DNA of 64,000 nucleotides. Origin: Escherichia coli. GTDB taxonomy: Bacteria; Pseudomonadota; Gammaproteobacteria; Enterobacterales; Enterobacteriaceae. The DNA is taken from the NCBI RefSeq assembly GCF_003334385.1, contig NZ_QOWN01000005.1; one strand, written 5' to 3'. The notes under the pieces are model-generated. The model saw only the letters and a program-made list of their open reading frames with translations. It had not been told where the DNA came from and made no database searches. The stretch's first letter is position 1. Every line of letters starts with the position of its first letter. The translations under genes and the position numbers were made by a program. Below, in pieces: positions 21,069-22,619 of the stretch.

Positions 21069-22619
21069 TTATACCGTAAACCCTAACATCATCCCCGTAT
21101 CTTCATGCTCCAGCAGATGGCAGTGCGCCATATAAGCATGTTCTTTCGGTGCATCGTGATTAAACTTCACCAGCACTTCGCTGACATTACCTTCTACCTT
21201 AACGGTATCTTTCCAGCCCGCGCGATGAGCCGCTGGCGGTTTGCCATTTTCTGACAAGATACGGAACTGCGTGCCGTGGATATGGAACGGATGCAGCATC
21301 ATGTCGCCCACGCCAGAGATAACCCAACGTTCGTATTGCCCTTTCGCCGCCGCAAACATCGGCTTGTTCATATCAAACGCCTGACCGTTGATTTTGTTGG
21401 CATGGTGGAAATCGAACTTCCCGCCGTGGTTCATATGATTCATATTGCCGTGCCCCATATGGCCCATCATCTGGCTGTGATCCATCCCGGCCATCGCCTG
21501 ATCGCCATATTTCTCCATTAGCATCTGCATCCCCATCATATCGAGCATCGGGTCCATAGAGAGTTGCAGCTTGCGTACCGTCAGCCCTTCCAGCGAAGGT
21601 AACGCAGGCAGGCTACTTAATGTGTCTGGCAAAGCACCGGAGGCACTAATAGCAATCGGCTGAATCCGCATTACCGGATGAGGCTTATCAAACGGCGCAA
21701 TCGCCATCCCCATCTGGCTGACCGGCAGCGTCACCAGGTCAAAGGGTTTGTTATCGTTAACCTCCACCAGCACTTCAAAACGCTCGCCCATCAGCACCGG
21801 CAGTTCGCTCACCTTCACTGGTTCAGGTAGCAGACCACCGTCGCTGGCAATCACATACAGCGGGCGATTGTCGCTGGTGGCGAAATTGAGCGAACGGGCA
21901 TTACAGCCATTGAGCAAACGCAGGCGCAGCCAACCACGCGGGGCAGCGTGTTGCGGGTAGATTGCACCGTTGGTCAGCAACGTATCGCCAAACCAGCCCA
22001 CGGCGGCGGTCATCACATCCAGTTGATAATCAATCTGCCCGTCGGCGCTAAATTTCTTATCCTGAACGATCACCGGAACATCATCGATACCCCACTGTTT
22101 TGGCAGCATTAATTTCAGGATCTCGTCATCTTCAATCACCACCAGCCCAGCCAGCCCCATCGCCACCTGTCGCCCGGTTTTGCCGTGCTGATGCGGATGG
22201 AACCAGCAGGTAGCGGCAGGTTGATCAACGTTCAACGTCACCGAGCGCTTGCCACCTGGCGGAATAATTCCCTGCGGGCCGCCGTCGACTTCACCCGGTA
22301 CTTCCAGCCCGTGCCAGTGCAACGTTGTCTCTTCCGTCAGTTGGTTGTAGATATCAACCGTTACCGCTTTGCCGCGCTGTAATTTCACCGCCGGCCCCAG
22401 CAGATTGCCGTTATAGCCCCAGGTAGTTGCAGTTTTCCCGCCAAAGGTGGACTGGCCTGCGCCAATAGTTAACTGAATGCGATTACGGGCATCGGTCGTG
22501 AGCAAATCAGGGATCGGTAACGTTGGGCGTTCTGCCGCAAATACTGCGCGGCTCCACAGCGGCAAAGCCGAAGCCACACCCAGCGCGACGGAATATTTTA
22601 AGAAATCACGACGTTGCAT
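21069..22619 (-). CDS. cueO: multicopper oxidase (cuprous oxidase), Tat-secreted
   Basis: Start set at MQRRDFLK... (twin-arginine signal), 516 aa; copper-ligand HxH motifs and a Met-rich insert. Confidence 0.93.

Follow-up and report, generated by a model that had tools for sequence, protein, structure and literature searches.

A methionine-rich tract in an Escherichia coli genome, very probably the known copper-handling insert of the cuprous oxidase CueO

This analysis concerns a stretch of 64,000 nucleotides from Escherichia coli (RefSeq assembly GCF_003334385.1, contig NZ_QOWN01000005.1), hereafter called the window, and within it a methionine-rich tract of the gene cueO, which encodes the periplasmic multicopper (cuprous) oxidase CueO. 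The tract is very probably the long-studied Met-rich copper-handling insert of E. coli CueO, and its nature is textbook-level biology, already known and structurally characterised in the reference strain. The initial annotation, made from the sequence alone, had singled the tract out as a conspicuous compositional anomaly within the window and had labelled it known biology; both judgements are borne out, the latter by a protein that is 100% identical to the solved CueO structures. From the point of view of a genome scan, the tract is a true positive as regards conspicuous composition and a true negative as regards novelty. It is important to stress that all functional statements on CueO made below rest on published work, the present analysis being one of sequence only. 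The features on which the argument relies are the following.

21069 to 22619, minus strand: cueO coding sequence, 516 codons, with the start codon ATG at 22619 and the stop codon at 21069-21071; multicopper (cuprous) oxidase CueO, periplasmic.
22536 to 22619, minus strand: twin-arginine (Tat) signal peptide, residues 1-28; Pfam TAT_signal matches residues 1-20 with E 7e-4.
21420 to 21557, minus strand: Met-rich insert, residues M355-G400, delimited by translation and composition and lying between Pfam domains.
21459 to 21557, minus strand: N-terminal part of the insert, residues 355-387; near-invariant, with the Met-rich helix, the ligands M355 and D360 of the labile fifth copper (Cu5) and the nonamer at 376-384.
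21420 to 21458, minus strand: C-terminal part of the insert, residues 388-400; a length-variable, flexible loop of Met, His, Gly and Asn.
21297 to 21305, minus strand: codons D439-M440-M441, of which D439 and M441 are the domain-3 half of the Cu5 site; invariant in the alignment referred to below as A1.

When considered from a compositional point of view, the segment of about 45 residues that had been reported as extremely rich in Met and His at 21420-21560 is confirmed, and it comprises 46 residues (M355-G400), among them 14 Met (30%), 5 His and 8 Gly. The coordinates hold for 21420-21557, which encode M355-G400, and require a small correction at their end, where the three extra bases belong to S354: the minus-strand translation of 21420-21560 is the 46-residue string first reported, preceded by that serine. 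The strand, which is the minus strand, had been left unstated. The Met content of the other 470 residues of CueO is 3.2%, and the mean over all stop-free stretches of at least 150 amino acids, taken in six frames across the window, is 2.3%. Outside CueO the maximum is 6 Met per 46 residues (23,523 sliding windows); for 14 or more Met among 46 residues, a binomial model at the background frequency gives a probability of 1.5e-12, with about 2.4e4 windows examined. The Met richness of the tract is clearly far beyond chance. An artefact of nucleotide composition as its source is ruled out, as the GC content is unremarkable (tract 53%, gene 55%, window 51%), and a DNA tandem repeat as its origin was rejected, Tandem Repeats Finder having returned nothing in 21300-21700. 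Finally, the absence of the tract on resequencing, which the initial annotation had named as the one finding that could undo the observation, is not what the genomes indicate: a stretch of 261 bases that includes the tract recurs, with unchanged length, in 5,424 of 5,426 complete E. coli genomes, and sequencing error is excluded because of this recurrence.

The open reading frame that carries the tract is E. coli cueO in its K-12 allele. Its product is 100% identical to PDB entry 5b7e over 516 of 516 residues, the whole insert included, and its mature chain (residues 29-516) is identical to entries 1kv7, 1n68 and 3od3, which are titled 'blue copper oxidase CueO'. The NCBIfam CueO equivalog NF008205 matches residues 1-516 with 982.9 bits against a cut-off of 525, and the RefSeq annotation of the reading frame is cueO. 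At the DNA level the gene is 100% identical to that of K-12-type strains, it is found in 5,425 of 5,426 complete E. coli genomes, and its neighbourhood (gcd / cueO / yacC-speE-speD-acnB) is that of K-12. Membership in two other families was considered and rejected on score, namely FtsP/SufI (NF008135, 297.4 bits against a cut-off of 581) and PcoA/CopA (TIGR01480, 119.6 bits against a cut-off of 478.95, with approximately 25% identity to PcoA).

The architecture of the protein is equally that of CueO. In agreement with RefSeq and with the PDB entries, translation truly starts at the ATG at 22619, and the resulting N-terminus (MQRRDFLK) bears the Tat motif; the two arginines are residues 3-4, and the mature PDB chains begin at residue 29. 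The program-made list of open reading frames begins cueO 13 codons further upstream, at a TTG at 22658, thereby including an extra stretch at 22620-22658. Pfam recognizes Cu-oxidase_3 at residues 55-165, Cu-oxidase at 227-293 and Cu-oxidase_2 at 399-516, and the Met-rich tract sits between these matches, in the gap ahead of the third domain. All ligands of the type-1 copper (H443, C500, H505 and M510) and of the trinuclear cluster (H101, H103, H141, H143, H446, H448, H499 and H501) are present, and each of these canonical copper ligands is kept in at least 127 of the 132 homologue representatives described next.

The extent to which the tract is an addition to the oxidase fold was addressed across homologues, with 132 full-length proteins among the best 150 representatives (50% identity level, drawn from 1.8 billion proteins) being aligned, and insert length being counted as the residues between the well-aligned anchors L353 and N408. 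Between 2 and 76 residues occupy this site, the median being 8; the number is 10 or less in 81 of the 132 proteins and at least 30 in 18, and the 54 residues of the E. coli protein are reached by only four. The Met count climbs with insert length (Spearman 0.75 over the 132 representatives), and seven of the 18 long inserts just mentioned consist of Met to at least 20%. The MAFFT alignment of the 132 proteins splits the variable region into gap-rich columns, where M355, D360 and M441 are unscorable. Alignment with multicopper oxidases that lack the insert, which the initial annotation had put forward as a check, was made as a four-way comparison: in Staphylococcus aureus Mco and in an Enterococcus plasmid oxidase the site spans only some 10 residues, and the plasmid-encoded PcoA has a region of its own at the equivalent position, approximately 110 residues long and with 18 Met. 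PDB entry 2yxv, an engineered deletion, matches CueO over residues 29-356 and resumes past the insert. On the evidence of these alignments, the CueO tract is to be regarded as a true insert. The short site of the Mco-type oxidases, together with the separate Met-rich region of PcoA, marks this loop as a hot spot of repeated Met-rich growth.

One short element is common to both Met-rich regions. The nonamer MAGMDHSQM occurs at CueO residues 376-384 (window 21471-21497) and at PcoA residues 379-387, in proteins that are otherwise about 25% identical, and PcoA holds a second copy of GMDHSQM. The cueO and pcoA DNA encoding the nonamer matches at 24 of 27 bases, with three of the six degenerate third positions differing, and on the strength of these differing positions a recent transfer of this DNA between the two genes was discarded, there being no sign of it.

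With respect to conservation, the insert falls into two parts. In alignment A1, residues 355-387 are almost unchanged between Escherichia and Citrobacter, and at residues 388-400 Citrobacter adds 3-28 residues of HGNMN-like units. The CueO proteins of C. freundii and C. portucalensis (P0003, P0018 and P0037) carry 23-28 extra residues of such tandem pentapeptides in A1 columns 436-470, and one Citrobacter variant of 544 amino acids is one HGNMN-like unit longer than the common form of 539 amino acids. These repeat-like units are seen at the protein level only, and in Citrobacter. Within E. coli no length polymorphism came to light: in each of 59 genomes, chosen so as to span the identity range, the 261-base stretch around the tract is equally long. 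A comparison of five divergent alleles shows 1-3 synonymous and 0-1 non-synonymous changes in the tract, with none of the 14 Met and 5 His lost, and the substitution pattern of the tract resembles that of the rest of cueO (pN about 0.002-0.005, pS about 0.08-0.13). The sole amino-acid polymorphisms seen in the insert, G399S and G391D, both lie in the variable loop half; the former (21423-21425) is found in B2-type strains (loci L006 and L007), and the latter (21447-21449) in P0001, the representative of an E. coli protein cluster with 8,474 members. The small number of non-synonymous changes and the retention of Met and His argue that the tract is under purifying selection and is not drifting filler.

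A few aberrant sequences were met in the course of these comparisons. The lone outlier is strain L37 (NZ_CP034589.1, locus L001 1501-3033), where cueO bears a pseudogene annotation, with frameshifts and an internal stop, and shows only 88.6% identity; its many indels, which run through the Met-rich tract, most likely reflect assembly error rather than biology. Two shorter proteins, P0008 and P0011 (470 and 471 residues), were considered as natural insert-less forms of CueO and rejected as such, since both keep the insert and lack 45-46 residues of domain 2 instead. Another protein, P0002, has an internal duplication of 47 residues and also keeps the Met-rich insert. All three come from single metagenome or draft contigs and are probably assembly artefacts.

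As regards function, the published work can be assembled into the following mechanism. CueO, exported by the Tat system and induced through CueR, oxidises Cu(I) to Cu(II) and reduces O2 to water, and in this way detoxifies Cu(I). The insert forms a surface loop that opens cupredoxin domain 3, made of the conserved Met-rich helix and the flexible Met/His/Gly loop, and by lying over the type-1 copper it excludes bulky phenolic substrates. M355 and D360, together with D439 and M441, form Cu5, at which substrate Cu(I) is bound and from which the electron passes to the type-1 copper. The solvent-exposed thioethers would act as a soft, low-affinity antenna, capturing Cu(I) transiently, removing it from strong chelators and handing it over to Cu5. 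The steric cover of the type-1 copper and the supply of Cu5 ligands are shown by others through structures and mutants, and the antenna role is the current best-supported model, which derives from kinetics with differently chelated Cu(I).

Several lines of published evidence bear on the individual steps. The four Cu5 ligands, M355 and D360 from the insert and D439 and M441 from domain 3 (PMC11494321), are all present in the window protein. Cu6 (ligands M358 and M362) and Cu7 (ligands M364, M368 and M376) were seen in a Cu(I)-soaked, type-1-depleted crystal (PMC11494321). Binding of Cu(I) by the Met-rich region at Cu5, Cu6 and Cu7 goes back to Singh 2011, as summarised in PMC11494321. A 2024 PNAS study shows that Cu5 is the only substrate site: cuprous oxidase activity is lost in the D439A/M441Q double mutant, and mutations of the Cu6 and Cu7 ligands are without effect (PMC11494321). 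This is contrary to Cortes 2015, which, as cited in PMC11494321, found a loss of activity upon mutation of Cu6 and Cu7 ligands. The initial annotation, in stating that the insert binds Cu(I), was right as to Cu5, Cu6 and Cu7, with the restriction that the functional site, Cu5, is shared with domain 3 and that Cu6 and Cu7 are functionally negligible (PMC11494321). Its further statement, that a Met-rich helix caps the substrate site, holds in so far as the region covers the type-1 copper and substrate site (PMC6155172; PMC12041951; Kataoka 2007, as cited in PMC11494321), and it has to be narrowed as to the helix: only approximately the first half of the region is helical, the loop that follows (roughly residues 370-398) being flexible and disordered in most crystals (PMC6155172).

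The contribution of the remaining methionines is best seen in the deletion variants. ΔMet358-407 and ΔMet361-396 retain 10-20% of activity on the complex of Cu(I) with bicinchoninic acid (BCA), keep more of it on the weaker Ferene complex and are approximately at wild-type level on free, electrogenerated Cu(I) (PMC11494321). In the model proposed by the authors of that work, a pool of methionines would take up Cu(I) for a short time and draw it away from strong chelators (PMC11494321). CueO of Hafnia, with a larger Met domain, performs better on chelated Cu(I) (PMC12041951). The Met domain assists rather than enables catalysis, in that it helps to recruit strongly chelated Cu(I) (PMC11494321; PMC12510620).

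It is nevertheless necessary to weigh a number of observations that speak against the copper-handling interpretation. Among the 18 homologue inserts of at least 30 residues, six contain less than 10% Met, and the existence of long inserts that are not Met-rich means that length alone does not imply copper handling. Moreover, the Met domain was dispensable for copper resistance in aerobic plate assays (PMC11494321), and it was equally dispensable anaerobically, the catalytic site being what counts (PMC12510620). In view of this dispensability in plate assays, any benefit of the domain inside the cell is a putative one. A statement in the introduction of PMC12041951, that viability did suffer from loss of the Met domain, is somewhat at odds with these reports. 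The copper-handling interpretation is held with high confidence.

Several other explanations of the tract have to be compared with it. The insert could be mainly a steric gate or specificity filter, which buries the type-1 copper against periplasmic phenols, catechols and siderophores, copper binding by the methionines being secondary. The Met-rich region indeed surrounds the type-1 copper, leaving it poorly accessible and hindering bulky substrates, and removal of the region raises phenol and ABTS oxidase activity (PMC6155172; PMC12041951; Kataoka 2007), as would be expected of a gate; in addition, helix movements in the G304K mutant uncover the type-1 copper (PMC6155172). However, a gate needs no 30% methionine, and unrelated lineages as well as PcoA are repeatedly Met-rich at this site. 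Moreover, it is specifically with strongly chelated Cu(I) that the activity of the ΔMet variants falls by 80-90% (PMC11494321). As a primary function, gating is possible, if unlikely. Gating and a role in copper handling are not exclusive, and the gate is better seen as part of the copper-handling explanation.

Alternatively, the insert may serve maturation or trafficking, by capturing Cu(I) with which the four catalytic coppers of apo-CueO are loaded before or after Tat export, or by docking to CusF or CopA. This was raised as an alternative by the authors of PMC11494321 themselves, on the grounds that ΔMet variants complement copper sensitivity in vivo, and CueO is a Tat substrate whose place of copper insertion is debated (PMC11494321). 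Yet the ΔMet variants, once purified, contain their full complement of copper and act on free Cu(I), and their complementation of a ΔcueO ΔcusB strain speaks against an obligatory partner interaction (PMC11494321), so that maturation or docking as the main role is doubtful. A somewhat broader formulation is that the tract was selected for a role outside steady-state catalysis, be it copper acquisition for the maturation of apo-CueO where copper is scarce or chelators compete for it, or service as a redox buffer repaired by MsrP; related to it is the notion that MAGMDHSQM is perhaps an exchangeable Cu(I)-binding module, either moved between copper oxidases or convergently fixed in them. Because ΔMet CueO protects cells in every published in vivo assay, this formulation retains a certain plausibility, though the chance that it is correct is slim.

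Oxidation chemistry has also been considered, in that the surface methionines could act as a sacrificial antioxidant or redox switch, scavenging reactive oxygen and chlorine species and being repaired by periplasmic MsrP. In favour of this, MsrP protects the Met-dependent copper chaperone CusF, and the Met-rich sites of CueO have been left as possible oxidation targets (PMC9302797); such a role, however, accounts neither for the conserved Cu5 ligands nor for the chelation-dependent kinetics and is very improbable. Slightly less credible still is the view that the insert is neutral low-complexity filler, grown by replication slippage in a tolerant surface loop. Its appeal lies in the variable length of residues 388-400 through HGNMN-like units in Citrobacter, in the range of 2-76 residues at the site across homologues and in the in vivo complementation by ΔMet variants. 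Against it stand the near-invariance of residues 355-387 across genera, the fixed length of the E. coli tract with its 1-3 synonymous against 0-1 non-synonymous changes, the lack of a DNA tandem repeat in E. coli, the independent recurrence of Met enrichment and the measurable kinetic effects. Finally, the anomaly has next to no chance of belonging to an antisense gene, the candidate for which, an 81-codon plus-strand open reading frame at 21276-21521 that overlaps the tract, appears in the program-made list and is itself His- and Met-rich. This richness mirrors the sense strand, ATG being the reverse complement of CAT; K-12 RefSeq has no gene annotated there, and the sense frame opposite encodes the crystallised protein.

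Comparison with known systems places the copper-handling insert in context. From E. coli K-12 CueO (YacK; PDB 1KV7, 1N68, 3OD3, 3NT0 and 5B7E) the window protein differs in nothing. The engineered forms Δα5-7 (PDB 2YXV/2YXW), ΔMet358-407 and ΔMet361-396 are the same enzyme minus the tract, and relative to the window protein they show raised phenol oxidase activity, 10-20% activity on Cu(I)-BCA and normal activity on free Cu(I), with normal complementation. The CueO proteins of Hafnia alvei (PDB 8R4F) and of Citrobacter are orthologues with an insert at the same site, sharing the conserved helix and the Cu5 ligands, and the Hafnia loop is larger, with 19 Met against 13 in E. coli by the count of its authors. 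PcoA and Pseudomonas CopA are likewise periplasmic, Tat-exported multicopper oxidases of copper resistance with a Met-rich equivalent loop; PcoA differs from CueO, however, in that its Met-rich region is longer and has the MDHSxM motif repeated, and in that its gene is part of the pco operon, outside the CueR regulon. S. aureus Mco, the Enterococcus plasmid oxidase, FtsP/SufI, CotA and the laccases have the same three-cupredoxin fold and, except for FtsP, the same copper ligands, whereas at the insert site they have 2-10 residues, their type-1 site lies open and they favour organic substrates. Outside the oxidases, CopC/PcoC and the Mets motifs of Ctr1 also coordinate Cu(I) in an oxidising compartment, by thioethers only or by Met and His; these proteins and CusF have unrelated folds and are chaperones or transporters, and not the appendage of an oxidase. 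In CusF, Cu(I) is held by Met/His or thioether-only coordination in an oxidising compartment, as in the CueO insert (PMC9302797). The insert bears on how enterobacteria tolerate copper inside their hosts, as well as on efforts to turn CueO into a laccase or oxygen-reduction catalyst, work that has been under way since 2002.

Two further features flank the gene.

22665 to 22696, minus strand: MerR/CueR-type cueO promoter, with the -35 element TTGACC, a 19-bp spacer and the -10 element TATGCT.
21028 to 21049, no strand assigned: GC-rich hairpin ATGCCCGGAGAGATCCGGGCAT, between the convergent genes gcd and cueO.

The promoter spacer contains a perfect 7-nt dyad, CCTTCCC-N5-GGGAAGG, with its arms at 22673-22679 and 22685-22691, and we take this dyad to be the CueR operator (Outten et al. 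2000), which is here a prediction. Regulation of cueO by CueR is stated in PMC9302797, and the long spacer and the dyad of this MerR-type promoter fit such control. At the other end of the gene, the hairpin at 21028-21049 is kept in all compared lineages, including those without neighbouring repetitive extragenic palindromic (REP) elements, and is probably a bidirectional terminator. The spacer between gcd and cueO measures 201 bp in the window and contains two REP-like palindromic units, at 20906-20939 and 20975-21003; three further lineages of the species (L006, L007 and L010; 764-809) have a spacer of only 46 bp, which is without REP-like units.

As to the distribution of the gene, cueO was also encountered on replicons labelled as plasmids, at ten places in the E. 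coli genome set and in 19 plasmid records at 99% identity or more. These replicons may be chromosome-derived or mislabelled; the one examined is AP026530.1, of 655,459 bp. Elsewhere in the window, Rfam matches above the gathering score were obtained for PssrA (53494-53583, minus strand), tp2 (36580-36693, plus strand) and STnc40 (47778-47847, minus strand), and for two copies of naRNA4, a REP-derived nucleoid-associated RNA, at 47181-47258 and 47298-47374 on the minus strand.

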